Below the pieces are notes generated by a model, which was given only the letters and a program-made list of their open reading frames with translations, ran no database searches and was not told where the DNA came from. From a virus (Duplodnaviria; Heunggongvirae; Uroviricota; Caudoviricetes), in IMG/VR virus record IMGVR_UViG_2700989400_000002: a stretch of 35,737 nt of DNA; one strand, given 5' to 3'. Below, one piece after another: positions 6,448 to 33,803 of the stretch. The translations under genes and the position numbers were made by a program. How positions within the stretch are numbered: the stretch's first letter is position 1; every line of letters begins with the position of its first letter.

Positions 6448-6899
6448 TGGCAAAAATTCACGAGGTAAAGCTGCACGCAAAATATTTTGACCTTGTGCTG
6501 GAAGGACATAAACGTGCAGAGTTTCGGAAAAATGATCGTAATTATGAGCGCGGGGACACGTTGATTTTGCGTGAATGGGTGCAGGGTGTGTATACGGGGC
6601 GAAAGGTTGAAGCCCGGATAACAGATGTTACTGACCTGTCAGACTGGCTGGAAGATTATGTCTTGCTAAGTATTGAGCTGCTTAATACAGGTGCATATGA
6701 GATTGTGAACTGGAAAGAACTTAGTGAGCGTGGCCTGATATTCAGAATTAATCATGAAATTATGCATCAGCTCGGCCTTGCTGTTATGTATGAACCAGAG
6801 ACGGGGATGTCTGGCGGGGCAATGGTTGCCACGGATGGAGCATGGAACTATTCAGATGAACAGGTGGAGCGTGCACAGCAAAACGGGCGGCTTGGATAA
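6444..6899 (+). CDS. ASCH/DUF3850-like small protein (151 aa), translationally coupled to A
   Basis: ATG at 6444 overlaps the A stop (ATGATG); N-terminal KIHEVKLHAKYFDLVLEGHKRAEFRKNDR...GDTLILRE resembles the DUF3850/ASCH signature from memory. Confidence 0.55.
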   Translation: MMAKIHEVKLHAKYFDLVLEGHKRAEFRKNDRNYERGDTLILREWVQGVYTGRKVEARITDVTDLSDWLEDYVLLSIELLNTGAYEIVNWKELSERGLIFRINHEIMHQLGLAVMYEPETGMSGGAMVATDGAWNYSDEQVERAQQNGRLG

Positions 6900-7211: not shown

Positions 7212-7736
7212 ATGCTGTTTCTGTGTAAACCGTTTCAGGAGATTAAAGTGATTACTTTTCAGACTATAAGAGATAAGTATATTGAAATCGTTCGGTTACA
7301 GAGAGAGGAAAAAGAGCGTTTACAAAATATTGTTGGGCTGATTGCGAAAAACTTTGAGGGGTCGCTTGAGCTTGAGCAAACTTGCTGGGGTTATCCAGGG
7401 CAAAATCCCACTGAAAATTATGTTTTTGTCGCTGCAATTAAAGATGGTGAAAAATCTAAAGTTCAGTTACACGATCTGTTGCCTGATGCAGATGGGGTTT
7501 TGTCATTTTTTATTGGTCTTACGGTGGATAAGTCACCGGTTGCTCATCCTAAGTTAAACGTGATTATTCCTTTGAAACTGCTACGTGAAGGGAATTGCTT
7601 TACGCTGGTAATAGGAAGCGGGGAATTCGAAATGAACTTAAGTGAAAAGCCAGCATTGCAAGAGCTTGAGGCTGTATCTGAAGCACTGAAACAAGCTGTA
7701 ATCAGAGACCTTGAATCTTACATTCCGGTGCGCTGA
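7212..7736 (+). CDS. hypothetical cargo protein (174 aa), no recognisable motif
   Basis: ORF with RBS (aggggg); moderately AT-rich; lies between the early-operon hairpin and cos, the slot occupied by tin/old in P2. An alternative GTG start at 7248 is possible. Confidence 0.55.
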   Translation: MLFLCKPFQEIKVITFQTIRDKYIEIVRLQREEKERLQNIVGLIAKNFEGSLELEQTCWGYPGQNPTENYVFVAAIKDGEKSKVQLHDLLPDADGVLSFFIGLTVDKSPVAHPKLNVIIPLKLLREGNCFTLVIGSGEFEMNLSEKPALQELEAVSEALKQAVIRDLESYIPVR

Positions 7737-7899
7737 TAATGTTTGTGGGGGAAAGCGATTTTCCCCGTTTTTGTGTGCGTGCATCAGGTGCATTGTTTTG
7801 CATGTGCCAAAGGCTGTTTTTATGGTCACTTGTTGCCTGTACCGGTGTGGTTTTGACGCCTTCATGCAACTGCATTAAATGTGACCCGCGAAGCGGGCG

Positions 7900-7918: not shown

Positions 7919-7991
7919 TGCGCGCAGAGCATAATTGGGTGTTTTGATAATGAAAATGCTTAACACAGTAATTTTCTAAGAGGTGATGATA

Positions 7992-9929
7992 ATGATTGCT
8001 GGAGTTTTTATAAGGAACTTTAAAACATACCAGGGGATAAATTACGTTCCTGTAAGTGATTCATCAAACTTGAGTGGTTTTCTTGGAAATAATGGCATTG
8101 GCAAAAGTTCTGTTTTAGAAGCATTGGATTGTGTATTTAATGATAGTTCATGGAACTTAAATATTGTTGTTAAGAAAAGTGGGTTAGAAAAAACAGAACC
8201 ATATATTGTCCCATTTTTTATCCTTGAACATGACTTTTTTGATAGTCTTCATCTACCATATGCACAAACATTAGATAAAATAGCTAGGACTATAACTGTT
8301 GATGACTCAACAAATCCTGCAACCAAATCGATAATAAGTGATTTTATTCATCATCGAGATAGGATTATTTCCAGAGGGGATGTGGATGGGAAGTTTTTAA
8401 TTCCTATAGGCCAAAACCATGAAGGAAAGATTTCCCTTTCTGTATTTAAGTCGAAGGTTATATCTTTCATGGATGAAAATGAGTTTGGAATCGAGTTTGA
8501 TAATTTGATTGAGTCTGAAGAGTATGTATCTTTATTTCAATCCTTATATATATACATATGTAATGCCTTGGAGTATCTTTATATACCGAAGGAGATTGAT
8601 AGCGAGTCTTTCACAAAGTTAGAAAGTATGGGGACTCAGGTACTCATGGGAGAATCCTTACATAAAATTTTGGATAGGATTGTTGGTGATAGCACTGTTT
8701 CCCAGATTAATAAAGAGTTAAATGGGTTTCTTGAAGATATATCTGGAAAGTTAATTAGTTATTCATATCGCACACCTACAGACAGACAAAAAAGGATTCA
8801 AAAGCGAGAGGTTTATAATCTTATTATAGAAGCCTTCTTCAATGTAAGAAAACTTCATAAAAATCAAGGCTCTGATTATTATCTGGAGATTAATTCTTTA
8901 AGTTCAGGTGAAAAGCAAAAAGCAATTATTGATGTTGCGCATGCTTTATTAACAAAACACCGCCAAGATGGAGGGCGTTTAATTATTGCAATTGATGAGC
9001 CTGAGTCATCACTGCATATGTCTGCGTGCTTTGAGCAATTTAATGCTCTTGCTGAATTGAGCCATAATTGCAGGCAGTTATTGTTCTCATCACATTGGTA
9101 TGGATTCTTACCTACTTTAGATTGCGGTTGCGTAACAATAATAACAAAGAAGGATTCAGAGCATAAGTTTGACTTAATTAATCTTGCTTCTTATCGCGAA
9201 GAGGTCAGGCAGTTAATAAGCTCAACTAATGGGAAAATGCCATTTGATATAAGGATAAAGAGTATCAATGATTTTATTCAGTCTATTGTAACCAGTGCTA
9301 CAGGAGATAATCCATATAACTGGATTATATGTGAGGGTACGTCTGAAAAAGTTTACTTGTCAGATTATTTCAAAGACCTTATGTGCGAAAGGAATCTTAG
9401 GATAATTCCGGTTGGTGGTGCAAAAGAGGTTAAAAGGATTTATGAGCAATTGGCTGCTTGTCATAAAGATATATCTGCGGAGTTGACTGGTGTTATTTAT
9501 TTATTATCAGATACCGATGTACAGCAAGTAAAATATCCAGTTGAGAAGTTGAAGAATATTTACTGTAAAAGAATTGTTTTCGATAAATCTGTGGGGAAAA
9601 CCGTTTTAGTAGATATAAATGGTAATCCTTCGTCACCTGCGACTGCCATAGAAGATTGTCTTAATGGGCAGGTGTTTCATCGAACTTTAATGACATATGT
9701 TTCTACTTATCCTCAGATTAGCTTTATCGCTACAGCACCAGTTAATGATTGTGATAATGAATCATTTAATTATTATGATCTTAGAACTTCTGAAAAGGAT
9801 GCTATCTTGGGTTTTTTTGCTGAGAATAATATGAAGTATGAATTTGCGCTGAAGTATAACTCTGAAAAATGCGATAGTGACTCAGTACCAGATTGGATTC
9901 AGAATGTAAAGGAAACGTTTCTGAAGTAA
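7992..9929 (+). CDS. OLD-family-like nuclease candidate: ABC-type ATPase plus C-terminal Toprim (646 aa)
   Basis: Walker A GNNGIGKS (8085..8108), signature-like LSSGEK, Walker B/D-loop LIIAIDEPESSLH (about 8980..9010), Toprim-like ICEGTSEK (E-G at 9333..9338) and LLSDTD (9510..9518); AT-rich. Start taken at ATG 7992 (RBS aagagg); the ORF track begins at GTG 7983. Confidence 0.65.
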   Translation: MIAGVFIRNFKTYQGINYVPVSDSSNLSGFLGNNGIGKSSVLEALDCVFNDSSWNLNIVVKKSGLEKTEPYIVPFFILEHDFFDSLHLPYAQTLDKIARTITVDDSTNPATKSIISDFIHHRDRIISRGDVDGKFLIPIGQNHEGKISLSVFKSKVISFMDENEFGIEFDNLIESEEYVSLFQSLYIYICNALEYLYIPKEIDSESFTKLESMGTQVLMGESLHKILDRIVGDSTVSQINKELNGFLEDISGKLISYSYRTPTDRQKRIQKREVYNLIIEAFFNVRKLHKNQGSDYYLEINSLSSGEKQKAIIDVAHALLTKHRQDGGRLIIAIDEPESSLHMSACFEQFNALAELSHNCRQLLFSSHWYGFLPTLDCGCVTIITKKDSEHKFDLINLASYREEVRQLISSTNGKMPFDIRIKSINDFIQSIVTSATGDNPYNWIICEGTSEKVYLSDYFKDLMCERNLRIIPVGGAKEVKRIYEQLAACHKDISAELTGVIYLLSDTDVQQVKYPVEKLKNIYCKRIVFDKSVGKTVLVDINGNPSSPATAIEDCLNGQVFHRTLMTYVSTYPQISFIATAPVNDCDNESFNYYDLRTSEKDAILGFFAENNMKYEFALKYNSEKCDSDSVPDWIQNVKETFLK

Positions 9930-19204: not shown

Positions 19205-19990
19205 TTATGAGTGATTTTTATTTGATGCTTTGTATTCTAAAACCTTCTTATTGGCGTAAAAGAATTTTGTATATGACAGGAATATAACCAGACCTGAAGT
19301 GAAATAGACGAGGGATAGTATTAATAATGCTTTTTTGTGACTGTTATTATCTTTAATCTCCTGGCTTAACCATTCGGAGTCCTCCTCGTTTAGCTGTAAG
19401 AGCTTATTGCAGGCGATTTCAGGAAGTGTGTCTTTTATAAATACGTTTTGCAGTCTCTTGCAATCGGCAAGGCTATAAGTTTTATTAAATTCAACTGCTT
19501 TATTTTTGAAGGATAAAAGAACTTTGTCACTATAAACATAGTACATCATGTTTTTATATGGTATGCCTATGGCATCCCTTACTATAACGGATTGTTCGTT
19601 GTGTATGTAACATGCGAGGAGAATGTAAAAAATACTGGCCAGAATTACAATTATTGTTTTAATTATGTGTGGTGGTTTTGTTATGTCACCCCAGATGCGA
19701 GTAAGGAAAAAATACGATGTTTTTAGTTTTCCATCAATCAGTCCCTGCTGTATCATTCTCACATTTTCAATGCCTGATACATTGATTCCGTTAATTATTT
19801 TAAATAGTTGAATGTCGCGCCACTCGCGGTCAAGTCTTTTTAATTTTTTGTCTGAATATCCAAAATTGAAATAATGTGCAATAAGCCTCATAAGGTTACT
19901 TTTACCAAAGCTAAAAAATGCTAATACTGCAAAGCTACAAAGGAAAAAAACGATTAGCCCCCACACATTAGTCACATTATAGCTGACCAT
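19205..19990 (-). CDS. AT-rich integral membrane protein (261 aa, about 3 TM helices), P2 orf30 slot
   Basis: Antisense to the late operons; hydrophobic segments near residues 9-28, 108-128 and 222-241; strongly AT-rich. Confidence 0.6.
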   Translation of the reverse strand: MVSYNVTNVWGLIVFFLCSFAVLAFFSFGKSNLMRLIAHYFNFGYSDKKLKRLDREWRDIQLFKIINGINVSGIENVRMIQQGLIDGKLKTSYFFLTRIWGDITKPPHIIKTIIVILASIFYILLACYIHNEQSVIVRDAIGIPYKNMMYYVYSDKVLLSFKNKAVEFNKTYSLADCKRLQNVFIKDTLPEIACNKLLQLNEEDSEWLSQEIKDNNSHKKALLILSLVYFTSGLVIFLSYTKFFYANKKVLEYKASNKNHS

Positions 19991-20073
19991 TACGCTCTCC
20001 TTGGATGTTGTCTGGTAGTTCTACAAATGAATCCAGATAGCATAACTTTTATATATTGTGCAATCTCACATGC

Positions 20074-20709
20074 ATGAACACTCTCGCAAATATTCAGGAA
20101 CTCGCGCGCGCACTGCGCAACATGATTCGCACCGGCATTATCGTCGAAACCGACCTTAACGCCGGTCGCTGCCGCGTGCAGACCGGCGGCATGTGCACCG
20201 ACTGGCTTCAGTGGCTGACCCATCGCGCAGGACGTTCGCGCACATGGTGGGCACCTTCCGTGGGGGAACAGGTGCTGATTCTGGCCGTGGGTGGTGAACT
20301 CGACACGGCGTTCGTTCTGCCGGGGATTTATTCCGGCGATAACCCCTCGCCGTCTGTGTCGGCGGATGCCCTGCATATCCGTTTCCCTGACGGGGCGGTG
20401 ATTGAATATGAACCCGAAACCAGTGCACTCACGGTAAGCGGAATTAAAACGGCCAGCGTGACGGCTTCTGATTCTGTTACTGCCACGGTGCCGGTGGTCA
20501 TGGTGAAAGCATCAACCCGCGTCACCCTGGACACCCCGGAGGTGGTCTGCACCAACAGGCTGATTACCGGCACGCTGGAAGTGCAGAAGGGCGGGACGAT
20601 GCGCGGCAACATTGAACACACCGGCGGTGAACTCTCATCAAACGGTAAGGTACTGCATACCCATAAACACCCCGGCGACAGCGGCGGCACAACCGGGAGT
20701 CCTTTATGA
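20074..20709 (+). CDS. V: baseplate spike/assembly protein V (211 aa)
   Basis: ATG at 20074 gives 211 aa as in P2 gpV; the ORF-track start is a TTG extension. Confidence 0.85.
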   Translation: MNTLANIQELARALRNMIRTGIIVETDLNAGRCRVQTGGMCTDWLQWLTHRAGRSRTWWAPSVGEQVLILAVGGELDTAFVLPGIYSGDNPSPSVSADALHIRFPDGAVIEYEPETSALTVSGIKTASVTASDSVTATVPVVMVKASTRVTLDTPEVVCTNRLITGTLEVQKGGTMRGNIEHTGGELSSNGKVLHTHKHPGDSGGTTGSPL

Positions 20710-21053
20710 CAGCGCGTTATCTCGGAATGAATCGCAGTGATGGCCTGACTGTCACTGACCTTGAGCATATCAGCCAGAGTATCGGCGATATCCTGCGCAC
20801 ACCGGTCGGCTCACGGGTGATGCGTCGTGATTACGGCTCGTTGCTGGCATCAATGATTGACCAGCCGCAGACCCCGACGCTTGAGTTGCAGATTAAGGTC
20901 GCCTGTTACATGGCGGTGCTGAAATGGGAACCCCGCGTCACCCTGTCATCCGTCACCACTGAGCGCAGTTTTGACGGGCGAATGACGGTCACGTTAACCG
21001 GCCAGCACAACGACACCGGCCAGCCACTTTCATTAACCATCCCTGTGAGTTGA
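20706..21053 (+). CDS. W: baseplate protein W (115 aa)
   Basis: Length and position as P2 gpW. Confidence 0.85.
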   Translation: MTARYLGMNRSDGLTVTDLEHISQSIGDILRTPVGSRVMRRDYGSLLASMIDQPQTPTLELQIKVACYMAVLKWEPRVTLSSVTTERSFDGRMTVTLTGQHNDTGQPLSLTIPVS

Positions 21054-21057
21054 AACC

Positions 21058-21966
21058 ATGCCGATTATCGACCTGAACCAGCTACCCGCACCGGATGTGG
21101 TCGAGGAGCTGGACTTTGAAAGCATTCTCGCTGAACGCAAGGCGACACTGATTTCCCTTTACCCGGAAGATCAGCAGGAGGCGGTCGCCCGTACCCTGAC
21201 ACTGGAATCTGAGCCTCTCGTCAAACTGCTGGAAGAAAATGCTTATCGTGAGCTTATCTGGCGTCAGCGTGTGAATGAGGCCGCACGGGCGGTGATGCTG
21301 GCCTGTGCCGCCGGTAATGACCTTGATGTGATTGGTGCCAATTACAACACCACGCGCCTGACTATCACCCCGGCAGATGATTCGACCATTCCGCCGACAC
21401 CGGCAGTGATGGAATCTGACACAGATTATCGTCTGCGTATTCAGCAGGCTTTTGAGGGCTTAAGCGTCGCCGGGTCAGTGGGAGCCTATCAGTATCATGG
21501 TCGCAGTGCTGACGGGCGTGTCGCGGATATTTCTGTCACCAGTCCGTCTCCTGCCTGTGTCACCATCTCTGTGCTGTCACGTGAAAATAACGGCGTCGCA
21601 TCCGAAGACCTGCTGGCTGTGGTGCGTAACGCCCTTAATGGCGAGGACGTCAGGCCGGTGGCCGACCGCGTGACCGTGCAGTCTGCCGCCATCGTTGAAT
21701 ACCAGATAAACGCCACGCTTTACCTTTACCCTGGTCCCGAAAGCGAACCCATCCGCGCTGCCGCTGTGAAAAAGCTGGAAGCGTATATCACGGCACAGCA
21801 CCGGCTGGGGCGCGACATCCGTCTGTCTGCCATTTATGCCGCTTTGCATGTGGAAGGTGTGCAGCGTGTCGAACTGGCTGCACCACTGGCCGACATCGTG
21901 CTCAACAGTACGCAGGCGTCTTTCTGTACCGAATACCGCGTCGTGACCGGAGGCTCGGATGAGTGA
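21058..21966 (+). CDS. J: baseplate protein J (302 aa)
   Basis: Length and position as P2 gpJ. Confidence 0.85.
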   Translation: MPIIDLNQLPAPDVVEELDFESILAERKATLISLYPEDQQEAVARTLTLESEPLVKLLEENAYRELIWRQRVNEAARAVMLACAAGNDLDVIGANYNTTRLTITPADDSTIPPTPAVMESDTDYRLRIQQAFEGLSVAGSVGAYQYHGRSADGRVADISVTSPSPACVTISVLSRENNGVASEDLLAVVRNALNGEDVRPVADRVTVQSAAIVEYQINATLYLYPGPESEPIRAAAVKKLEAYITAQHRLGRDIRLSAIYAALHVEGVQRVELAAPLADIVLNSTQASFCTEYRVVTGGSDE

Positions 21967-22489
21967 TTCGCGACTGCTGCCGACCGGCTCATCACCGCTT
22001 GAGGTCGCCGCCGCAAAAGCCTGTGCGGAAATTGAAAAAACGCCGGTCAGTATTCGTGAGCTGTGGAACCCGGACACCTGTCCGGCAAATCTGCTGCCGT
22101 GGCTGGCGTGGGCGTTTTCGGTCGACAGGTGGGATGAAAAGTGGCCGGAAGCGACAAAACGCGCCGTTATCCGCGATGCGTATTTCATCCACTGTCATAA
22201 AGGCACAATAGGTGCAATCCGGCGTGTGGTGGAGCCGCTCGGCTATCTCATCAACGTGACGGAGTGGTGGGAAAACAGTGACCCGCCCGGCACCTTCCGG
22301 CTTGATATTGGTGTACTGGAAAGCGGCATCACAGAGGCAATGTATCAGGAAATGGAACGGCTGATTGCTGATGCCAAACCTGCAAGCCGCCACCTTATTG
22401 GCCTGAACATTACCCGGGACATTCCCGGCTACCTGTTCGCCGGTGGTGTGGCTTACGACGGCGATGTAATTACGGTTTACCCCGGATAA
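21959..22489 (+). CDS. I: baseplate protein I (176 aa)
   Basis: Length and position as P2 gpI. Confidence 0.85.
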   Translation: MSDSRLLPTGSSPLEVAAAKACAEIEKTPVSIRELWNPDTCPANLLPWLAWAFSVDRWDEKWPEATKRAVIRDAYFIHCHKGTIGAIRRVVEPLGYLINVTEWWENSDPPGTFRLDIGVLESGITEAMYQEMERLIADAKPASRHLIGLNITRDIPGYLFAGGVAYDGDVITVYPG

Positions 22490-22499
22490 GTGAGGAATA

Positions 22500-24818
22500 A
22501 TGAGCACAAAATTCAGAACCGTTATCACCACTGCCGGTGCAGCAAAGCTGGCAGCGGCAACCGCACCGGGAGGGCGGAAGGTCAACATTACCACGATGGC
22601 CGTCGGGGATGGCGGTGGTAAATTGCCTGTCCCGGATGCCGGACAGACCGGGCTTATCCATGAAGTCTGGCGACATGCGCTGAACAAAATCACCCTGGAC
22701 AAACGAAACAGTAATTATATTATCGCAGAGCTGGTTATTCCGCCGGAGGTGGGCGGTTTCTGGATGCGTGAGCTTGGCCTGTACGATGATGCGGGAACGC
22801 TAATTGCCGTGGCGAACATGGCTGAAAGTTATAAACCCGCTCTTGCCGAAGGCTCAGGGCGTTCGCAGACCTGCCGCATGGTCATCATCGTCAGCAGTGT
22901 GGCCTCAGTGGAGCTGACCATTGACACCACAACGGTGATGGCAACGCAGGATTACGTTGATGACAAAATTGCAGAGCATGAACAGTCACGACGTCACCCG
23001 GACGCCTCGCTGACCGCAAAAGGTTTTACTCAGTTAAGCAGTGCAACCAACAGCGCGTCTGAAACACTGGCCGCAACGCCGAAAGCGGTAAAGGCCGCCT
23101 ATGACCTTGCTAACGGGAAATATACCGCACAGGACGCTACCACAGCGCGAAAAGGTCTTGTCCAGCTCAGTAGTGCCACCAACAGCACGTCTGAAACGCT
23201 CGCCGCAACACCAAAAGCGGTTAAGGCAGCGTATGACCTTGCTAACGGTAAATATACTGCACAGGACGCCACCACAGTGCGAAAAGGTCTTATCCAGCTC
23301 AGTAGCGTCACCAACAGCGATTCTGAAACGCTTGCGGCAACGCCAAAGGCGGTAAAGGCAGCGTATGACCTTGCTAACGGGAAATACACTGCACAGGATG
23401 CCACCACGGCGCGGAAAGGGCTTGTCCAGCTCAGTAGCGCCACCAACAGTGATTCTGAAACGCTGGCCGCAACACCAAAAGCGGTGAAGTCTGCCTATGA
23501 CAATGCTGAAAAACGTCTTCAGAAAGATCAGAACGGTGCGGATATTCCGGGAAAGGATACCTTCACGAAAAATATCGGTGCCTGTCGTGCTTATAGCGGC
23601 GCTTTGAGCACTGAAGCCGGAAACTGGACAACCGCTCAGTTTATTGAATGGCTGGATTCCCGTGGTGCATTTAATCATCCGTACTGGATGTGCAAAGGCT
23701 CCTGGTCATATGCAAATAACAAAATCATTACGGATACCGGATGTGGTGATATCCACCTGGCTGGTTGTGTCGTCGAGGTCATGGGAACTAAATCTGCAAT
23801 CACTATCCGAGTGACCACGCCGACAACATCAAGCGGTGGCGGTACAACCAGCGCACAATTCACTTACATTAATCATGGGGACGGCTACTCCCCCGGCTGG
23901 CGTCGTGACTGGAATCGTCAGGGCGACGCAATGACCGGAACGATTAATCAGGACGGTGGAAGCCAGAATGCCTATATGTCTACGGCCTTATGTTCAGGCA
24001 CAAGAGGCGGCAAAAAATATCTCAGAAAGTTTCGTGGTGGAGAAGGAGACACTATCTGGCATGAAACAGTACAGGGCGGGGTAGTTCGTTGGGCGACTGG
24101 TAATACTGATGCTCAGGAAGAATTATCACTCAGCTCCGCTTATGGTCTCCGTTCAAGAGGTGAGATTACATCACTCAGTGCTAATGGTCTGCGCATTGCT
24201 TATGGCAATTATGGATTCTTTATCAGGAATGATGGCGGCAGCACATATTTAATGCTGACGGCCTCTGGCGATAAATTTGGGACATGGAACGGCTTAAGAC
24301 CGCTGACTATCAATAACGCCAATGGCGGAGTGTCAATGGGGCATGGCCTGAGTGTTACAGGTGATATTGTCTCAAGTACCAAAGTACGTGCCGGTAGCGG
24401 GAAAAAGTTCACGGTCAGCAGCAGCAATACATCCACGAAGGAAGCCGCATTCAATTTGTGGGGAAACTCAAGTCGTCCTGTGGTGGCTGAATTAGGTGAT
24501 GATGCAGGCTGGCATTTTTACAGTCAGAGAAATACAGATAACAGCATCACTTTTGCTGTTAACGGGCAGGTATCACCATCTAACTATGGCAACTTTGATT
24601 CACGCTATGTCCGGGATATCCGGCTTGGTGGTGCTGCCACATACAAACCTGCGAACAATGGTATGACATGGACACATCAGGCACCGTCCGGGTGTGTATA
24701 TTCCGGCATTATTGTTCAGGATACCGGCTCAAACTCTGCCGATAACATTGGTGGCGTATATTACAGACCGGTGCAGAAATACATTAACGGGACTTGGTAT
24801 AACGTGGCGCAGGTATAA
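22500..24818 (+). CDS. H: tail fiber protein H (772 aa) with internal tandem repeats
   Basis: Conserved N-terminus; longer than P2 gpH (669 aa from memory); contains 132-bp in-frame tandem repeats; C-terminal half is lower in GC. Confidence 0.85.
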   Translation: MSTKFRTVITTAGAAKLAAATAPGGRKVNITTMAVGDGGGKLPVPDAGQTGLIHEVWRHALNKITLDKRNSNYIIAELVIPPEVGGFWMRELGLYDDAGTLIAVANMAESYKPALAEGSGRSQTCRMVIIVSSVASVELTIDTTTVMATQDYVDDKIAEHEQSRRHPDASLTAKGFTQLSSATNSASETLAATPKAVKAAYDLANGKYTAQDATTARKGLVQLSSATNSTSETLAATPKAVKAAYDLANGKYTAQDATTVRKGLIQLSSVTNSDSETLAATPKAVKAAYDLANGKYTAQDATTARKGLVQLSSATNSDSETLAATPKAVKSAYDNAEKRLQKDQNGADIPGKDTFTKNIGACRAYSGALSTEAGNWTTAQFIEWLDSRGAFNHPYWMCKGSWSYANNKIITDTGCGDIHLAGCVVEVMGTKSAITIRVTTPTTSSGGGTTSAQFTYINHGDGYSPGWRRDWNRQGDAMTGTINQDGGSQNAYMSTALCSGTRGGKKYLRKFRGGEGDTIWHETVQGGVVRWATGNTDAQEELSLSSAYGLRSRGEITSLSANGLRIAYGNYGFFIRNDGGSTYLMLTASGDKFGTWNGLRPLTINNANGGVSMGHGLSVTGDIVSSTKVRAGSGKKFTVSSSNTSTKEAAFNLWGNSSRPVVAELGDDAGWHFYSQRNTDNSITFAVNGQVSPSNYGNFDSRYVRDIRLGGAATYKPANNGMTWTHQAPSGCVYSGIIVQDTGSNSADNIGGVYYRPVQKYINGTWYNVAQV
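23013..23501 (+). repeat. in-frame tandem repeat inside H: about 3.6 copies of a 132-bp (44-aa) unit
   Basis: Units begin at 23031, 23163, 23295 and 23427 (partial), with a leading partial copy from 23013; they differ at a few positions. Confidence 0.85.
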
Positions 24819-24821
24819 TTT

Positions 24822-25349
24822 ATGCAGCATTTGATAAATATAACGGCAGGTAATCCAAAAACGGTTGAACAATATCAATTGACAAAAGACTTTGATGTTG
24901 TCTGGTTTTTTTCAGAAGATGGTAAGAACTGGTACGAAGAACAAAAGTATTTTGCTGATGACACGCTAAAAATAGCGTACGACAAAGATAATATCATCCG
25001 CTATGTGGAAAAGGATGTGACAGCTATCAGACCGGATGGATTAAGTGTTGTTGAAGTGGCGGATATTACTGCTAACCGACGGGCGGACATTTCAGGGAAC
25101 TGGATGTTTAAGGACGGCAAAGTGATTAAACGCATTTATACGGCAGAGGAATTGCAGCAGCAGGCAGAAAACCGGAAAGCCAGACTTCTTGCAGATGCTG
25201 AATCCGTGATTTTGCCGCTGGAGCGTGCTGTCAGACTGAACATGGCAACAGATGAGGAGCGTAGCCGACTGGAAGCATGGGAACGCTACAGCGTTCTGGT
25301 CAGTCGTGTGGATCCTGCAAATCCTGAATGGCCGGAAATGCCGCAATAA
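24822..25349 (+). CDS. G: tail fiber assembly chaperone G (175 aa)
   Basis: Length and position as P2 gpG; AT-rich. Confidence 0.8.
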
Positions 25350-25384
25350 GTTGTATGATCTCTGGAGTGAGCAAACGTATCTAT

Positions 25385-25424
25385 GGCACAGAGTTAAGCC
25401 TAATCTGACAGTACGCTCTGTGCC
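25385..25424. other. hairpin downstream of G (9-bp stem ggcacagag / ctctgtgcc, 22-nt loop)
   Basis: Inverted repeat read directly; no T-run. Confidence 0.3.
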
Positions 25425-25611
25425 AGGAGCGGATACTTTAATGTTCTATCACTATTGGATATGATTATCATGAAACTACCTTAAATTAACATCTTGCTAA
25501 AGATGCAACCAAAAGTTACCTTCAGGGAATTGTGAGCTGATAAGAAGAATAGTTGTATCTAATAAGATGTTGAGTTTTAATTAAACTCCATGCGAACAAG
25601 GAGGGCAAAAA

Positions 25612-27225
25612 ATGAGCAATTCATTTTCAATTACACTACCTACAAAAGAAAAAGACCTAGCGGAAATAGAGACTAATCAGAGCGTGCTTATTATCGGTGC
25701 GAATGGCTCTGGAAAGTCTCGCCTTGGGACATGGATGGATCTAAAATCTCCTCAAAGAAATATTGTTCATCGTATTTCCGCTCAGCGGGCTTTAGCGATG
25801 CCTGACCATACAACACCAACTTCGCTTCAACAAGCACAGAATAATTTACTCTATGGAATTGAAAATTTGGAAGGGTCGGAACTACTTTGGTATAAAGAGA
25901 ATTATCGCTGGGGAAGTAAACCTGCCATATCATCATTAAATGATTATGGTAAATTAATGGTGTATCTCTTTTCAGACAAAATTGAAGAAAACTCGAAATA
26001 TATTGAATTAGTTAAATCTTCAGAAAAAAGAATTGAACCAACGACGACTAAATTAGATAAAATTAAATATATTTGGGAAAAAACATTACCTCACCGAGAG
26101 CTTGTTTTAGGCGGTTTGACAATTCAAACACGAGCAAAAGGAAATAACGAGGCTGTCTATAACCCCTCGGAAATGAGCGACGGTGAGCGAGTTATTTTCT
26201 ATCTGATTGGGCAATGTCTTGCAGCACCCGAAAATGGAATTATTGTCATAGACGAGCCAGAAATTCATCTTCACAAATCTGTACAAGTTCCATTATGGAA
26301 GGATATAGAAAAACTCCGACCTGATTGCCTGTTTGTATATATGACTCATGATACTGATTTTGCTGCAGCACTGCATGATGCAAAGAAAATCTGGTTAAAA
26401 AGTTATGATGGTTCCAGTTGGGATTGGGAAGATGTTCCCGATGTCGAAGGCCTACCAGAAAGTTTATTAATTGAAATATTGGGTAGTAGAAAACCAATTG
26501 TTTTTGTTGAGGGGGAAAATGGAAGCTATGATGTATCCCTTTATCGTGCTGTGTTAAATAGTTATCTAGTGATACCATCTGGTTCTTGTAGTCAAGTAAT
26601 ACAAAATGTTAAAGCTCTAAGAGCCAGTGAAAAACTCCATTATATGGAAGTTTTTGGTATTATTGATAGGGATAGACGTGTTGAAAATGAAATTCAATCG
26701 CTTCTGGAATACGGTATTTATACTCTAAGCGTGGCTGAAGTCGAAAATCTCTTTTGCGTTCCGGAAGTTATAACTTTAGTTAGCGAACGATTAGTCAGGA
26801 ATCCAGATAAAGATCTACAATCAGTTAAAGATTTTGTGTTCCGTAAAATATCCTCAGAGCTGGATACTCAGATTTCACTGCGTGTGGCTGGCGAAATTAA
26901 ATTCATGCTTAATTGTTTTGATGAAAAAGCAAAAGGGGTCGATGCTCTTAGTAGAGCTCTTGAGTTGTTGACGTCACAAATTAATGTTAAAGAGCTTTAT
27001 GATGAAAGTTTATCTCTGTTTAATAATGCAGTTGAGAAACGTGATTATCTTCTTGCATTAAAACTTTATAACAGGAAAAGCCTTTCATCCCAAGTAAGTA
27101 AGCATCTGGGGCTGGCTAATGGACAGCTTGCTGAATTAGTGGTCAGGATGGCTAATAATGAAAGTGGAGAGTCAATGAGAAATGCTCTCAGACCATATTT
27201 TGGTGAGTTTTCGAGTAAAATATAG
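25612..27225 (+). CDS. ABC-type ATPase fused to Toprim/DUF4435-like domain (537 aa), Z/fun-slot cargo
   Basis: Walker A GANGSGKS (25696..25719), SDGER signature-like, Walker B/D-loop IIVIDEPEIHLH (D-E-P-E at 26251..26262), Toprim-like VFVEGENGSYD (26509..26517) and IIDRD (26665..26673); strong RBS aaggaggg; AT-rich. Confidence 0.65.
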   Translation: MSNSFSITLPTKEKDLAEIETNQSVLIIGANGSGKSRLGTWMDLKSPQRNIVHRISAQRALAMPDHTTPTSLQQAQNNLLYGIENLEGSELLWYKENYRWGSKPAISSLNDYGKLMVYLFSDKIEENSKYIELVKSSEKRIEPTTTKLDKIKYIWEKTLPHRELVLGGLTIQTRAKGNNEAVYNPSEMSDGERVIFYLIGQCLAAPENGIIVIDEPEIHLHKSVQVPLWKDIEKLRPDCLFVYMTHDTDFAAALHDAKKIWLKSYDGSSWDWEDVPDVEGLPESLLIEILGSRKPIVFVEGENGSYDVSLYRAVLNSYLVIPSGSCSQVIQNVKALRASEKLHYMEVFGIIDRDRRVENEIQSLLEYGIYTLSVAEVENLFCVPEVITLVSERLVRNPDKDLQSVKDFVFRKISSELDTQISLRVAGEIKFMLNCFDEKAKGVDALSRALELLTSQINVKELYDESLSLFNNAVEKRDYLLALKLYNRKSLSSQVSKHLGLANGQLAELVVRMANNESGESMRNALRPYFGEFSSKI

Positions 27226-27376
27226 TTATACAGAGTGCATAATACTTATCGTGACTGTGGTTGGATGATGTGTGTGGTTCATGTGTCTGCTCCTCGCTCA
27301 CAGCAGGCTGTCAGATTTGATAGCGTTTGGGCTATGTAAATTGTCAGTTGGAAAATGAGTGAGTGCAAGTCAGGAC

Positions 27377-27400
27377 AGGCGGGCGAATTGCCCGCCTTTT
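27377..27400 (+). terminator. intrinsic terminator after the Z/fun-slot cargo gene
   Basis: GC stem aggcgggc / gcccgcct followed by ttttctttatc. Confidence 0.7.
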
Positions 27401-27500
27401 CTTTATCTGTTGTTTCATCCACTGACCAGACAGGTCAAATAGCGTCTCAGGCACTGCCCAATAGAAAATAGTTGCACCCATTAACCACGGAGTTAAACGG

Positions 27501-28691
27501 ATGAGTGACTATCATCACGGCGTGCAGGTGCTGGAGATTAACGACGGCACCCGCGTCATTTCCACCGTATCCACCGCCATTGTCGGCATGGTCTGCACGG
27601 CCAGCGATGCGGATGCGGAAATCTTCCCCCTCAATAAACCGGTGCTGATTACCAATGTGCAGAGCGCAATTGCAAAGGCCGGTAAAAAAGGCACGCTGGC
27701 GGCATCGTTGCAGGCCATCGCCGACCAGTCAAAACCGGTCACCGTTGTCGTGCGTGTGGAAGACGGCACCGGCGAAGACGAAGAAACGAAACTCGCGCAG
27801 ACTGTTTCCAATATCATCGGAACCACCGACGAAAACGGTCAGTACACCGGACTGAAAGCCCTGCTGGCGGCGGAGTCGGTAACCGGTGTTAAACCGCGTA
27901 TTCTTGGTGTGCCGGGGCTGGATACCAAAGAGGTGGCTGTTGCACTGGCATCAGTCTGTCAGAAGCTGCGCGCTTTCGGGTATATCAGCGCATGGGGCTG
28001 TAAAACCATTTCTGAGGTGAAAGCCTACCGCCAGAATTTCAGCCAGCGTGAGCTGATGGTCATCTGGCCGGATTTCCTCGCATGGGATACGGTCACCAGT
28101 ACCACCGCCACCGCGTATGCCACCGCACGTGCGCTGGGTCTGCGTGCCAAAATCGACCAGGAGCAGGGCTGGCATAAAACGCTGTCCAACGTCGGGGTGA
28201 ACGGTGTTACCGGCATCAGCGCATCTGTATTTTGGGATTTGCAGGAGTCCGGCACCGATGCTGACCTGCTTAACGAGTCAGGCGTCACAACACTGATTCG
28301 CCGTGACGGTTTCCGCTTCTGGGGTAACCGTACCTGCTCTGATGACCCGCTGTTCTTCTTTGAAAACTACACCCGCACCGCGCAGGTGCTGGCCGACACG
28401 ATGGCTGAGGCGCACATGTGGGCGGTGGACAAGCCCATCACCGCAACGCTGATTCGCGACATCGTTGACGGCATCAATGCCAAATTCCGTGAGCTGAAAA
28501 CAAACGGCTATATCGTGGATGCGACCTGCTGGTTCAGCGAAGAATCCAACGATGCGGAAACCCTCAAGGCCGGAAAACTGTATATCGACTACGACTATAC
28601 CCCGGTGCCTCCTCTTGAAAACCTGACCCTGCGCCAGCGTATCACCGATAAATATCTGGCAAATCTGGTCACCTCGGTTAACAGCAATTAA
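27501..28691 (+). CDS. FI: tail sheath protein (396 aa)
   Basis: Length and position as P2 gpFI. Confidence 0.9.
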   Translation: MSDYHHGVQVLEINDGTRVISTVSTAIVGMVCTASDADAEIFPLNKPVLITNVQSAIAKAGKKGTLAASLQAIADQSKPVTVVVRVEDGTGEDEETKLAQTVSNIIGTTDENGQYTGLKALLAAESVTGVKPRILGVPGLDTKEVAVALASVCQKLRAFGYISAWGCKTISEVKAYRQNFSQRELMVIWPDFLAWDTVTSTTATAYATARALGLRAKIDQEQGWHKTLSNVGVNGVTGISASVFWDLQESGTDADLLNESGVTTLIRRDGFRFWGNRTCSDDPLFFFENYTRTAQVLADTMAEAHMWAVDKPITATLIRDIVDGINAKFRELKTNGYIVDATCWFSEESNDAETLKAGKLYIDYDYTPVPPLENLTLRQRITDKYLANLVTSVNSN

Positions 28692-28703
28692 GGAGCCTGA
28701 CCG

Positions 28704-29222
28704 ATGGCAATGCCGCGCAAACTCAAGTTAATGAACGTCTTTCTGAACGGCTACAGCTATCAGGGCGTTGCAAAGTCCGTCACGCTGCCAAAACTGACCC
28801 GTAAGCTCGAAAACTATCGCGGTGCGGGGATGAACGGCAGCGCACCGGTAGACCTCGGCCTTGATGACGATGCCCTGTCAATGGAGTGGTCGCTCGGTGG
28901 TTTCCCGGATTCGGTTATCTGGGAGCTTTACGCAGCAACCGGTGTGGATGTCGTGCCGATTCGTTTTGCAGGCTCTTACCAGCGCGACGATACCGGCGAA
29001 ACGGTGGCCGTCGAGGTGGTCATGCGTGGACGTCAGAAAGAAATCGACACCGGCGAGGGTAAACAGGGAGAAGACACCGAGTCGAAAATCTCTGTGGTCT
29101 GCACCTATTTCCGGCTGACGATGGACGGTAAGGAGCTGGTCGAAATCGACACCATCAACATGATTGAGAAGGTGAACGGCGTCGACCGGCTGGAGCAACA
29201 CCGCCGAAATATCGGCCTGTGA
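28704..29222 (+). CDS. FII: tail tube protein (172 aa)
   Basis: Length and position as P2 gpFII. Confidence 0.9.
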   Translation: MAMPRKLKLMNVFLNGYSYQGVAKSVTLPKLTRKLENYRGAGMNGSAPVDLGLDDDALSMEWSLGGFPDSVIWELYAATGVDVVPIRFAGSYQRDDTGETVAVEVVMRGRQKEIDTGEGKQGEDTESKISVVCTYFRLTMDGKELVEIDTINMIEKVNGVDRLEQHRRNIGL

Positions 29223-29278
29223 TTTTCATCCGGTCAGCCTGGCTGACCGGTTAACCCTGATTCAGAAGTGAGAAAACC

Positions 29279-29554
29279 ATGAACAAAGAAAATGTGATTA
29301 CCCTGGACAATCCGGTCAAGCGTGGTGAGCAGGTTATCGAACAGGTCACGCTGATGAAACCCAATGCCGGGACGCTGCGCGGTGTCAGTCTGGCTGCGGT
29401 CGCAAACTCCGAAGTCGATGCACTGATTAAGGTGCTGCCGCGCATGACGGCACCGATGCTGACCGAGCAGGAAGTCGCCGCGCTGGAACTGCCTGACCTT
29501 GTGGCGCTGGCCGGTAAGGTGGTCGGTTTTTTGTCGCCGAACTCGGTGCAGTAA
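29279..29554 (+). CDS. E: tail assembly chaperone E (91 aa)
   Basis: Length and position as P2 gpE; contains the slippery heptamer near its 3' end. Confidence 0.8.
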   Translation: MNKENVITLDNPVKRGEQVIEQVTLMKPNAGTLRGVSLAAVANSEVDALIKVLPRMTAPMLTEQEVAALELPDLVALAGKVVGFLSPNSVQ

Positions 29555-29706
29555 CGTTCCCGAAAAATCTGTCGGTCGATGACCTGATGGCGGATGTGGC
29601 AGTGATATTTCACTGGCCGCCATCAGAACTATATCCCATGAGCCTGACCGAACTCATCACATGGCGCGAAAAGGCGCTCCGGCGAAGCGGAAACACGAAT
29701 GAGTAA
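29279..29706 (+). CDS. tail assembly chaperone E+E' (about 142 aa) made by programmed -1 frameshift
   Basis: Slippery T-TTT-TTG at 29527..29533; the -1 frame stays open to TAA at 29704..29706, overlapping the T start; predicted 142 aa matches P2 E+E'. Confidence 0.65.
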
Positions 29707-32146
29707 CAATGTAAAATTACAGGTATTGCTCAGGGCTGTTGACCAGGCATCCCGCCCGTTTAAATCCATCCGCACAGCGAGCAAGTCGCTGTCGGGGGAT
29801 ATCCGGGAAACACAAAAATCACTGCGCGAGCTGAATGGTCACGCATCCCGTATTGAGGGATTTCGCAAGACCAGCGCACAGCTCGCCGTGACTGGTCATG
29901 CACTTGAAAAGGCACGGCAGGAGGCCGAAGCCCTTGCCACACAGTTTAAAAACACTGAACGTCCGACCCGTGCTCAGGCGAAAGTGCTGGAATCCGCAAA
30001 GCGTGCGGCGGAGGACTTACAGGCGAAATATAACCGCCTGATAGATTCCGTTAAACGCCAGCAGCGGGAACTGGCCGCTGTGGGAATTAATACCCGCAAT
30101 CTTGCACATGATGAGCAGGGACTGAAAAACCGTATCAGTGAAACCACCGCACAGCTTAACCGTCAGCGTGATGCGCTGGCGCGTGTCAGTGCGCAACAGG
30201 CAAAACTTAACGCAGTAAAACAGCGTTATCAGGCCGGAAAGGAACTGGCCGGAAATATGGCCTCAGTGGGCGCTGCCGGTGTGGGGATTGCGGCGGCGGG
30301 AACGATGGCCGGAGTTAAGTTGCTGATGCCCGGTTATGAGTTTGCGCAGAAAAACTCAGAATTGCAGGCCGTGCTCGGAGTGGCAAAAGACTCCGCCGAA
30401 ATGACCGCACTACGCAAACAGGCGCGCCAGCTCGGCGACAATACCGCCGCCTCGGCGGATGATGCGGCCGGTGCACAGATAATCATCGCGAAAGCGGGTG
30501 GGGATGTTGATGCCATTCAGGCGGCAACGCCGGTCACGCTGAATATGGCGCTGGCGAACCGCCGCACGATGGAAGAAAACGCCGCCCTGCTGATGGGGAT
30601 GAAATCCGCCTTTCAGCTTTCAAACGATAAGGTCGCTCATATCGGGGATGTTCTCTCCATGACGATGAACAAAACCGCCGCCGATTTTGACGGCATGAGC
30701 GATGCGCTGACCTATGCCGCACCTGTGGCAAAAAATGCCGGTGTCAGCATTGAAGAAACCGCCGCAATGGTCGGGGCGCTGCATGATGCAAAAATCACAG
30801 GCTCAATGGCGGGGACGGGAAGCCGTGCCGTGTTAAGCCGCCTGCAGGTACCGACGGGAAAAGCATGGGATGCTCTCAAAGAGCTTGGAGTGAAAACCTC
30901 AGACAGCAAAGGAAACTCCCGGTCAATATTTACCATTCTGAAAGAAATGCAGGCCAGTTTTGAGAAAAACCGGCTCGGTACTGCCCAGCAGGCTGAATAC
31001 ATGAAAACTATTTTCGGGGAGGAGGCCAGCTCAGCCGCCGCCGTGCTGATGACTGCCGCCTCAACCGGAAAGCTGGACAAACTGACCGCTGCGTTTAAAG
31101 CCTCAGACGGGAAGACCGCCGAGCTGGTAAATATCATGCAGGACAACCTAGGCGGTGACTTTAAAGAGTTTCAGTCCGCTTATGAGGCGGTGGGGACTGA
31201 CCTGTTTGACCAGCAGGAAGGCGCGCTGCGTAAGCTCACGCAGACGGCCACAAAGTATGTGTTAAAACTCGACGGCTGGATACAGAAAAACAAATCACTG
31301 GCGTCAACCATCGGCATCATTGTCGGTGGTGCACTGGCGCTGACTGGTGTCATCAGTGCCATTGGCCTCGTAGCCTGGCCGGTTATCACCGGCATTAATG
31401 CCATCATCGCGGCAGCAGGCGCAATGGGTGCAATCTTCACGACGGTTGGCAGTGCCGTTATGACGGCCATCGGGGCGATTAGCTGGCCGGTTGTGGCTGT
31501 GGTGGCCGCCATTGTCGCCGGGGCGTTGCTTATCCGTAAATACTGGGAGCCTGTCAGCGCATTCTTTGGCGGTGTGGTGGAAGGGCTGAAAGCGGCATTT
31601 GCGCCGGTGAGGGAGCTGTTCACGCCACTGAAACCGGTGTTTGACTGGCTGGGCGAAAAGTTACAGGCCGCGTGGCAGTGGTTTAAAAATCTGATTGCCC
31701 CGGTTAAAGCCACACAGGACACCCTGAACCGTTGCCGTGACACGGGGGTCATGTTCGGGCAGGCACTGGCTGACGCGCTGATGCTGCCGCTTAATGCGTT
31801 CAACAAACTGCGCAGCGGTATTGACTGGGTACTGGAAAAACTCGGGGTTATCAACAAAGAGTCAGACACACTTGACCAGACCGCCGCCAGAACTCATGCC
31901 GCCACGTATGGCACCGGTGGTTATATTCCGGCGACCAGCTCTTATGCATGTTATCAGGCTTATCAGCCGGTTACGGCACCGGCTGGCCGCTCTTATGTGG
32001 ACCAGAGTAAAAACGAATATCACATCAGCCTGACGGGTGGTACTGCGCCGGGGACACAGCTTGACCGCCAGTTACAGGATGCGCTCGAAAAATACGAGCG
32101 GGATAAACGTGCGCGCGCCCGTGCCAGCATGATGCATGACGGTTAA
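29699..32146 (+). CDS. T: tail tape measure protein (815 aa)
   Basis: Length and position as P2 gpT; coiled-coil N-terminus and hydrophobic Gly/Ala-rich middle. Confidence 0.9.
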   Translation: MSNNVKLQVLLRAVDQASRPFKSIRTASKSLSGDIRETQKSLRELNGHASRIEGFRKTSAQLAVTGHALEKARQEAEALATQFKNTERPTRAQAKVLESAKRAAEDLQAKYNRLIDSVKRQQRELAAVGINTRNLAHDEQGLKNRISETTAQLNRQRDALARVSAQQAKLNAVKQRYQAGKELAGNMASVGAAGVGIAAAGTMAGVKLLMPGYEFAQKNSELQAVLGVAKDSAEMTALRKQARQLGDNTAASADDAAGAQIIIAKAGGDVDAIQAATPVTLNMALANRRTMEENAALLMGMKSAFQLSNDKVAHIGDVLSMTMNKTAADFDGMSDALTYAAPVAKNAGVSIEETAAMVGALHDAKITGSMAGTGSRAVLSRLQVPTGKAWDALKELGVKTSDSKGNSRSIFTILKEMQASFEKNRLGTAQQAEYMKTIFGEEASSAAAVLMTAASTGKLDKLTAAFKASDGKTAELVNIMQDNLGGDFKEFQSAYEAVGTDLFDQQEGALRKLTQTATKYVLKLDGWIQKNKSLASTIGIIVGGALALTGVISAIGLVAWPVITGINAIIAAAGAMGAIFTTVGSAVMTAIGAISWPVVAVVAAIVAGALLIRKYWEPVSAFFGGVVEGLKAAFAPVRELFTPLKPVFDWLGEKLQAAWQWFKNLIAPVKATQDTLNRCRDTGVMFGQALADALMLPLNAFNKLRSGIDWVLEKLGVINKESDTLDQTAARTHAATYGTGGYIPATSSYACYQAYQPVTAPAGRSYVDQSKNEYHISLTGGTAPGTQLDRQLQDALEKYERDKRARARASMMHDG

Positions 32147-32160
32147 GGAGGTGACGAAAA

Positions 32161-32640
32161 ATGATGCTCGCGTTAGGTATGTTTGTTTTTATGCGCCAGA
32201 CGCTGCCACACCAGACCATGCAGCGTGAATCAGATTATCGCTGGCCGTCAAATTCCCGTATCGGCAAACGGGATGCCTTTCAATTTCTCGGTGTGGGTGA
32301 GGAAAACATCACGCTTGCCGGTGTGCTTTATCCCGAACTGACCGGCGGAAAGCTGACGATGACCACGCTCAGGCTGATGGCTGAGGAAGGCCGGGCGTGG
32401 CCGTTGCTGGATGGCACTGGCATGATTTACGGCATGTATGTCATCAGCAAGGTGAGTGAAACAGGGAGTATTTTCTTTGCAGACGGCACACCCCGAAAAA
32501 TTGATTTTACGCTGTCGCTCACCCGCGTTGATGAATCACTGGCCGCGCTGTATGGCGATATCGGTAAACAGGCGGAATCGCTCATCGGTAAGGCTGGCAG
32601 TATGGCGACCAGATTCACGGGGATGACGGGGGCGGGATAA
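32161..32640 (+). CDS. U: tail protein U (159 aa)
   Basis: Length and position as P2 gpU. Confidence 0.85.
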   Translation: MMLALGMFVFMRQTLPHQTMQRESDYRWPSNSRIGKRDAFQFLGVGEENITLAGVLYPELTGGKLTMTTLRLMAEEGRAWPLLDGTGMIYGMYVISKVSETGSIFFADGTPRKIDFTLSLTRVDESLAALYGDIGKQAESLIGKAGSMATRFTGMTGAG

Positions 32641-33803
32641 TGTTGGATGCGCTGACATTTGATGCAGGCAGTACGCTGACGCCGGATTACATGCTGATGC
32701 TCGACAGCAGGGATATTACCGGCAATATCAGCGACCGTCTGATGAGCATGACCCTGACGGATAACCGGGGCTTTGAGGCTGACCAGCTTGATATTGAACT
32801 GAACGATGCCGACGGGCAGGTCGGGCTGCCGGTTCGTGGCGCTGTCCTGACGGTGTATATCGGCTGGAAAGGTTTTGCCCTGGTATGCAAAGGGAAATTT
32901 ACCGTTGATGAGGTTGAACACCGGGGCGCGCCGGATGTGGTCACCATCCGCGCCCGGAGTGCAGATTTTCGCGGGACGCTCAATTCCCGCCGGGAAGGCT
33001 CCTGGCATGACACCACACTCGGTGCGATTGTTGAGGCGATAGCCTCCCGTAACAAGCTGGAGGCCAGTGTCGCTCCGTCACTGGCCGGAATTAAAATCCC
33101 GCACATCGACCAGTCGCAGGAGTCTGATGCGAAATTCCTGACCCGTCTTGCAGAACGCAACGGCGGTGAGGTGTCGGTAAAAATGGGAAAACTGTTGTTT
33201 CTCAAAGCGGGGCAGGGGGTGACGGCCAGCGGTAAAAAAATCCCGCAGGTCACCATCACCCGCAGCGACGGCGACCGTCATCATTTTGCGATTGCTGACC
33301 GTGGAGCCTATACCGGCGTTACGGCAAAGTGGTTACACACCAAAGACCCGAAGCCGCAAAAGCAGAAGGTAAAACTGAAACGCAAAAAGAAAGAGAAACA
33401 CCTGCGCGCACTGGAGCACCCGAAAGCGAAACCGGTCACGCAGAAGAAAGAGCCAAAAGTACCGGAAGCGCGCGAAGGTGAATACATGGCCGGTGAGGCT
33501 GACAACGTTTTTGCCCTGACCACGGTATATGCCACGAAAGCACAGGCCATGCGCGCCGCTCAGGCGAAGTGGGATAAACTGCAACGGGGTGTTGCGGAGT
33601 TCTCCATCAGCCTGGCTACTGGTCGGGCAGATATTTACACGGAAACACCGGTTAAAGTGTCAGGCTTTAAGCGCGTCATAGACGAGCAGGACTGGACCAT
33701 CACTAAGGTGACACATTGTCTCAATAATAGCGGCTTCACGACGTCCTTGGAGCTTGAGGTAAGGCTTTCTGATGTGGAGTACGAAACAGAAGATGATGAG
33801 TGA
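32640..33803 (+). CDS. D: tail protein D (387 aa)
   Basis: Length and position as P2 gpD; ATGA overlap with U. Confidence 0.85.
   Translation: MLDALTFDAGSTLTPDYMLMLDSRDITGNISDRLMSMTLTDNRGFEADQLDIELNDADGQVGLPVRGAVLTVYIGWKGFALVCKGKFTVDEVEHRGAPDVVTIRARSADFRGTLNSRREGSWHDTTLGAIVEAIASRNKLEASVAPSLAGIKIPHIDQSQESDAKFLTRLAERNGGEVSVKMGKLLFLKAGQGVTASGKKIPQVTITRSDGDRHHFAIADRGAYTGVTAKWLHTKDPKPQKQKVKLKRKKKEKHLRALEHPKAKPVTQKKEPKVPEAREGEYMAGEADNVFALTTVYATKAQAMRAAQAKWDKLQRGVAEFSISLATGRADIYTETPVKVSGFKRVIDEQDWTITKVTHCLNNSGFTTSLELEVRLSDVEYETEDDE

Follow-up and report, generated by a model that had tools for sequence, protein, structure and literature searches.

What kind of gene occupies the interval between the tail-fibre assembly gene G and the tail sheath gene FI of a P2-like Escherichia coli prophage, and how could it have come to stand there? 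The question is raised by the IMG/VR virus record IMGVR_UViG_2700989400_000002, whose whole stretch of 35,737 nucleotides (the window) is such a prophage. The interval holds a gene, ariAB, which is a member of the merged subtype of the PARIS defence system, previously catalogued. It probably serves for lysogenic conversion, as cargo of the Z/fun slot known from P2-like phages, and encodes PARIS as a single polypeptide (AriAB) that would act as an ATPase sensor and a Toprim RNase, with an abortive outcome of infection.

The gene between G and FI

The initial annotation had described an AT-rich open reading frame (ORF) of 537 residues between G and FI with a strong ribosome-binding site (RBS), and the coordinates, the base composition and the RBS were all confirmed. 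The sequence AAGGAGG is present at 25598..25604, 7 nt upstream of the ATG. The G+C content is 0.37 in the ORF and in its 260-nt leader, in contrast to 0.53 in 20001..25349 and 0.56 in 27501..33000. The protein is identical to RefSeq WP_000071451.1, named 'DUF4435 domain-containing protein'. The gene, its leader and the regions of its product are located as follows.

25435..25611, plus strand: leader travelling with ariAB, including the RBS at 25598..25604
25612..27225, plus strand: ariAB, the fused PARIS gene (ATG start, 537 residues, 60.9 kDa)
25612..26451, plus strand: AriA-like ATP-binding cassette (ABC) ATPase domain, residues 1-280
25696..25719, within the ATPase domain: Walker A
26176..26190, within the ATPase domain: signature SDGER
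26239..26256, within the ATPase domain: Walker B (the H-loop THD follows at residues 245-247)
26452..26796, plus strand: AriB-like Toprim (DUF4435) domain, residues 281-395
26509..26511, within the Toprim domain: E300
26665..26673, within the Toprim domain: D352-R-D354 (AEVEN follows at residues 375-379)
26797..27222, plus strand: C-terminal all-helical domain, residues 396-537, corresponding to the helical half found in AriB

The product had been read as an ABC ATPase fused to a Toprim/DUF4435-like domain, possibly a fused variant related to OLD, GajA and PARIS, and searches with hidden Markov models (HMMs) bear this out. In Pfam, DUF4435 is matched at 1.9e-20 (74.1 bits, cut-off 27) and AAA_21 at 3.8e-10 (40.8 bits, cut-off 27), and structural matches reach AriA as well as AriB. 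Single-gene PARIS fusions were reported by Rousset et al. (2022; PMC9122126), whose rule for merged PARIS is an AAA_15/AAA_21 ABC ATPase and DUF4435 in one protein; here AAA_21 and DUF4435 are found above their cut-offs in a single ORF. The curated PADLOC model of the fused protein, AriAB (PDLC02982), aligns residues 3-534 with positions 25-568 of its 570 (E 1.9e-187, 622 bits) and leads the other full-length models by more than 500 bits. The separate PADLOC models of AriB and AriA match residues 293-424 (9.2e-18) and 118-233 (3.1e-14), respectively. PHROG 25246, labelled 'ABC transporter', also matches the protein (1.9e-269), and the NCBIfam search returned no family for it.

Burman et al. 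(2024; PMC11464382) divide PARIS into 11 clades and trace the two merged ones (ariAB) to a single derivation from the two-gene clade 9. Compared with merged PARIS/AriAB (PDLC02982; the 'merged 1/2' clades of these authors), stand-alone proteins of about 535-545 residues with the same AAA_21 and DUF4435 domains, the gene described here shows no detectable difference. The initial annotation could tell neither to which family the gene belongs nor whether it is new. The family is now resolved as the merged PARIS subtype, but novelty is lost: both this family and the Z/fun slot are catalogued, so that the finding is already known, and on the basis of the full-length PADLOC match a standard defence annotation should give PARIS (merged).

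All the motifs pointed out previously could be located: Walker A GANGSGKS (residues 29-36), the signature SDGER (189-193), the Walker B/D-loop stretch IIVIDEPEIHLH (210-221), and the Toprim motifs EGE (300-302) and DRD (352-354). When 36 homologues belonging to several phyla are aligned, G29, K35, S189-R193, D214, E215, H246, E300, D352, D354, E376 and E378 prove invariant. The catalytic elements of the ATPase (Walker A K35, Q58, signature S189-R193, Walker B D214-E215, and H246) and of the Toprim domain (E300, D352-x-D354, and E376/E378) are all kept in the protein, whose AriA-type ATPase fold retains the Walker A Lys and the Walker B Glu, both of which are required for defence in the AriA of E. 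coli B185. The ATPase domain carries a short insert of four helices (residues 59-160). For the C-terminal helical domain, the AlphaFold2 model has a predicted local distance difference test score of 91.5.

The gene had also been taken to stand alone. Homologues were compared in E. coli CP4-like islands, an Enterobacter hormaechei lambdoid prophage, Proteus chromosomes, Marinobacter, Anabaena and Okeania. No neighbouring gene is common to these six contexts, and all seven genomic contexts, this prophage included, have completely different neighbours. To judge from its neighbours, ariAB would be a 'loner' without an obligatory partner. This is a large family, with more than 2750 clusters (90% identity) matching the query, and its members, from bacteria and archaea, nearly always have 520-570 residues. 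The C-terminal domain alone retrieves 165 clusters at 50% identity (E ≤ 1e-30). More distant full-length AriAB proteins exist in Firmicutes and in a methanogenic archaeon (Halobacillus, locus L017; Methanolapillus, locus L016, 2101..3762), and the Okeania locus encodes a fusion of 542 residues. The search of representatives with the C-terminal domain showed no two-gene relatives with a short AriA. Most matches of about 250 residues that resemble a stand-alone AriB turned out to be fragments, from contigs only about 1 kb long or from contig ends, or else portions of fused genes that had been mis-called. In E. coli the allele is rare, being present in 6 of 5426 complete genomes, 962 of which have P2-type flanks; the six sequences, from different sources, are 99.7-100% identical. 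Among 50,697 deposited phage genomes, its sole relative is found in Oenococcus phage phi9805 (27.7% identity).

Mode of action and competing explanations

The PARIS system of E. coli B185 consists of two polypeptides (PDB 8UX9, 8V45-8V49). Six AriA subunits form a propeller that sequesters three AriB (PMC11464382), and when it meets a phage trigger (Ocr, Ptr1/2), in a step that depends on ATP, AriB is freed; it then dimerises and cuts the anticodon stem of tRNA-Lys and of tRNAs related to it, halting translation (PMC11464382; PMC12409363). Since all catalytic elements are retained in the fused protein, we infer that it follows the same logic. The N-terminal 280 residues are an ABC ATPase of the AriA type in which no catalytic motif is damaged; by analogy with B185 they would serve as an ATP-dependent sensor of a trigger protein made by the phage. 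The C-terminal 257 residues are an AriB-type Toprim (DUF4435) nuclease with its helical domain, which would act as a two-metal RNase. Once unlocked and dimerised, this RNase would cut the anticodon stem-loops of host tRNAs; translation would stop, infection would be aborted, and the lysogen population would be protected along with its prophage. Release of the nuclease from a scaffold, as in B185, is impossible when both halves are covalently joined. The fusion is therefore likely to be switched on in cis, by a change of conformation inside an ABC-type dimer or another oligomer of it. The metal ligands of B185 AriB are E26, D30, D88, E90 and E122. In the fused family E300, D307, D352, D354, E376 and E378 are invariant and stand in the same order in a matching fold; as sequence profiles do not reach AriB, the comparison goes by residue order and fold.

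Several observations count against so close an analogy. When the protein or the family profile is searched against solved structures, AriA is reached marginally (E 0.03-0.29) and in the signature/Walker B stretch only. AriB is not reached by the protein, the family profile or the profile of the C-terminal domain at E ≤ 10. With respect to structure, the C-terminal half aligns over its full length with AriB (8ux9_A) in Foldseek, with E 2.1e-3 and probability 1.00, whereas every other match has an E of at least 0.09; the template-modelling scores to AriB are low (0.39/0.34). The Walker A Lys and the Walker B Glu are separated by 180 residues (K35-E215), in contrast to 354 in B185 AriA (K39-E393), an insert about 174 residues longer. 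Most of the IS1/IS2 coiled-coil region is therefore absent. In B185 these coiled coils make AriA a trimer of dimers, the hexameric propeller, and line the trigger-binding pores (PMC11464382). The distance between the Walker motifs thus suggests that the hexamerisation insert is missing from the fusion, and with it most of the blades and pores of the A6B3 propeller. Conservation is also unusually high for a trigger sensor, with 58-65% identity among Enterobacteria, cyanobacteria and Brocadiales (homologues including P0017, P0054, P0084 and P0090), and the literature search found no experiment on any fused PARIS member. Weak matches to African swine fever virus DNA polymerase X in the search of structure sequences (E ~0.03-0.07) were dismissed as noise.

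Fused PARIS may consequently depart from B185 in its trigger, its oligomeric state and even its substrate, and with a similarity so near to noise an identical trigger and substrate are not to be assumed. This remote similarity of B185 PARIS also means that near-identity to a characterised system was not found. Lacking most of the propeller/trigger-pore insert, fused AriAB may form a compact dimer and be unlocked in cis. It may sense a different, conserved cue, which would fit the conservation across phyla, and it may cut a different substrate.

The joining of an ATPase to a Toprim domain is common to PARIS and to enzymes of the OLD and Gabija type, and the protein could be an ATP-regulated Toprim DNA nickase or nuclease that degrades phage or host DNA and not tRNA. 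We regard this as improbable. GajA, Ts OLD and PtuA are strong structural matches, PADLOC gives weak matches to GajA (1.4e-09, residues 120-230 only) and ATPase-Toprim_I-B (3.1e-08), and the similarity to the sole AriB with a known substrate is remote; however, the Toprim domain matches DUF4435/AriB, and OLD-like_TOPRIM (PF20469) is absent from the Pfam results at E ≤ 1, being matched instead by another ATPase of the prophage (7983..9929). The best full-length PADLOC model, by the margin given above, is AriAB, and Old is not among the best 25 models. AriB is the top Foldseek match of the C-terminal half, with no OLD or GajA chain among the 50 matches listed. P2 Old and the class 1 OLD nucleases are likewise single chains of ABC ATPase and Toprim, and P2 Old is an exclusion gene of a P2-type prophage, but it combines the OLD-like Toprim (PF20469) with the A-Q slot, whereas ariAB combines a DUF4435 Toprim with the Z/fun slot. 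Gabija GajA and the PtuA of Septu and retrons belong to the same ABC ATPase clade (AAA_15/AAA_21) and are the top Foldseek matches of the ATPase half. They have long coiled-coil or dimerisation inserts and require partners (the GajB helicase; the PtuB HNH protein; the retron reverse transcriptase and its multicopy single-stranded DNA), none of which is present here: the slot lacks the adjacent UvrD-like helicase gene by which Gabija is recognised, the neighbours being G and FI.

A role unrelated to phages, in which mobile elements would passively carry an addiction or stabilisation module or a translation factor resembling ABC-F, appears quite unlikely. It would agree with the lack of experimental evidence for the fused family and with a conservation across phyla that is atypical of defence sensors, and NCBIfam gives ABC-F matches far under the cut-off (1.8e-07). 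Yet ABC-F proteins consist of two ABC cassettes and have no Toprim domain, the nuclease catalytic residues are invariant, the slot is also used by validated defence genes, and three further kinds of mobile elements carry the gene at positions where the cargo varies. That ariAB is a functionless, decaying remnant is hardly credible. Truncated homologues of 383 and 427 residues exist in databases (P0013, P0014 and P0029), and nothing specific speaks for decay in this gene, which has an intact frame of 537 residues, conserved catalytic residues, a strong RBS and near-identity in the six E. coli genomes, and whose more than 2700 full-length relatives are under evident purifying selection. The reading as a fused PARIS gene, and with it the earlier proposal of a defence nuclease, is thus supported by the domain identity, the PADLOC AriAB match and the structural matches, at the level of sequence comparison and modelling.

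The prophage contains a second candidate for a single-gene ABC-ATPase/Toprim protein, an OLD-like ORF of 648 residues at 7983..9929 (plus strand, G+C about 0.33) in the A-Q (old/tin) hotspot. Its product matches AAA_15 (2e-16), AAA_21 (2e-12) and OLD-like_TOPRIM (PF20469; 22.5 bits, cut-off 23.2) in Pfam, and AriA (1.9e-17) and Old (7.3e-12) in PADLOC. The prophage therefore has an OLD-like gene and a PARIS-like gene, one in each hotspot. Small cargo ORFs adjoin the OLD-like gene: 6411..6899 encodes a DUF3850/ASCH and DUF7415 protein of 162 residues, and 7212..7736, near it, a protein of 174 residues and unknown function (PHROG 5091).

The slot, the cassette and its ends

The queried stretch is 100% identical to E. 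coli strain MB07081 (NZ_CM129880), whose annotated neighbours extend from replication endonuclease A through portal, capsid, lysis, baseplate, tail fibre, sheath and tape measure genes to ogr. The initial annotation had placed the gene in the variable Z/fun slot for anti-phage cargo, and rightly so: the G-FI interval is the position of Z/fun in P2 and of orf44 in Wphi. The fun locus is the second defence-enriched locus of P2-like phages (Vassallo et al. 2022, PMC9519451), and a 2026 survey also cites it as a defence locus (PMC13586616). B185 PARIS, in contrast, is located in the psu-int hotspot of P4. The features that delimit the insertion are listed below.

24822..25349: tail-fibre assembly gene G (PHROG 136, 1e-79)
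25379..27323, plus strand: discrete cassette made of left hairpin arm, leader, ariAB, tail and right hairpin arm
25385..25424, plus strand: large hairpin GGCACAGAG-N22-CTCTGTGCC, minimum free energy -18.8 kcal/mol, z -2.95, overlapping the left arm
25402..25434, plus strand: left arm (LE), AATCTGACA and a small hairpin, here GTACGCT-CTGTGCCAGG-AGCGGAT
27286..27317, minus strand: right arm (RE), small hairpin TCTGCT-N10-AGCAGG and then CTGTCAGATT
27377..27397, plus strand: intrinsic terminator, -20.1 kcal/mol, z -3.85, followed by TTTTCTTT
27501..28691: tail sheath gene FI (PHROG 23, 1e-158)

The large hairpin and the terminator had been regarded as the brackets of the island. Both fold significantly better than shuffled sequence, and the hairpin does overlap the left end of the cassette, but the terminator is not part of the island. 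In Yersinia phage P37 (L035, 445-640) and Salmonella phage PSP3 (L036, 410-610) the slot is empty and the stop codon of G leads directly to the terminator and then to FI, which identifies the terminator as native P2 backbone behind G; it is missing from the cassette copies outside P2. The inserted material therefore spans about 25350..27376. The large hairpin is kept in P2-like phages with other cargo, but the view that it is plain backbone is rejected because the same ends accompany ariAB outside P2.

The cassette span is 89-91% identical in the E. hormaechei lambdoid prophage (L010, 4770-6710) and in a Proteus chromosome (L012, 4763-6711), and the homology ends just beyond the arms. Within it, the leader of about 180 nt, compared in four contexts unrelated to each other, has a mean column identity of 91% and presumably contains its own promoter. 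A promoter consensus scan of the leader gave none at the scan threshold, and an Rfam search of 25200..27600 gave no match.

Each arm follows the consensus of a small hairpin rich in G+C, GTCCGCT-N10-AGCGGAC, whose outer flank is AATCTGACA. The loops of LE and RE differ from each other, and each type is conserved. All cargo types observed in the slot, namely those of P2, Wphi, HQ103, P24B2, P22H1, P24E6b, OU784750 and 12474II, lie between an LE and an RE arm. For instance, P2 fun(Z) shares with ariAB the G-FI slot and the arms, and only these, since it encodes an unrelated protein of 299 residues. Such arms are also present beside a GTPase gene in E. coli CP4-like islands, where they set each cargo cassette apart from the next; in L005 the AriAB cassette is followed by one with DUF3800, and the cargo of L037 is a large reverse transcriptase. 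The left arm was found at 2312 places in 1872 of the 5426 E. coli genomes; about half of these 1872 have the 34-nt core only, as do the CP4-like contexts checked. Outside the window the arms lie at these positions.

L010 (E. hormaechei lambdoid prophage): 4786-4819 and 6671-6704
L012 (Proteus chromosome): 4786-4819 and 6674-6707
L005 (CP4-like island): 5802-5822, 7671-7737 and 10969-10989
L037 (CP4-like island): 1095-1128, 5920-5940 and 8106-8126

In the prophage the arms form an imperfect inverted repeat around the cargo (25402..25441 and 27278..27317; 40 nt, 75% complementary). This appearance is produced by the palindromic nature of the single arms, which are small hairpins, and the arms of L037 are direct, not inverted, repeats. 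Both points weaken the idea of a transposon with genuine terminal inverted repeats, and the direct repeats of L037 do not fit a simple transposon model. No transposase is encoded inside the cassette, and no clear target-site duplication was apparent. The hairpin ends of this transposase-less cassette of about 1.9 kb could be recombination or mobilisation sites, and the arms may be a signal that shuttles defence cassettes between unrelated mobile elements. The literature search for the arm sequences gave nothing relevant; these flanks may have been described already by Nilsson et al. in 2004 (Mol Biol Evol 21:1). The 2026 survey lists the mechanism that shuttles defence genes between unrelated elements as unknown (PMC13586616). 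Taken jointly, the proposals that fused AriAB works in a manner materially unlike B185 and that the cassette ends shuttle defence genes are tentative, and rather doubtful as a pair.

Remaining cargo and meaning of the locus

An AT-rich ORF of 261 residues at 19205..19990 (minus strand, G+C about 0.34) constitutes a third moron-like position of the prophage, between a virion morphogenesis gene and the baseplate gene V. Its product belongs to PHROG 2407 (unknown function, 5.6e-148) and has no match in Pfam or PADLOC. The tail-fibre gene (22500..24818) contains a tandem repeat at 23046..23501 (period 132 nt, 3.5 copies, 87% matches), which encodes repeated units of 44 residues (…SSATNS-SETLAATPKAVKAAYDLANGKYTAQDATT…).

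With respect to its significance, the finding is real but ordinary, and the classification of ariAB adds little. A moderate interest resides in the activation of fused PARIS and in the ends of the cassette. The locus is a natural example for the question of how a covalently fused, insert-poor PARIS stays off and switches on, and also for the movement of defence cargo between P2-like phages and unrelated elements, in which the hairpin ends and the gene's own leader travel along.
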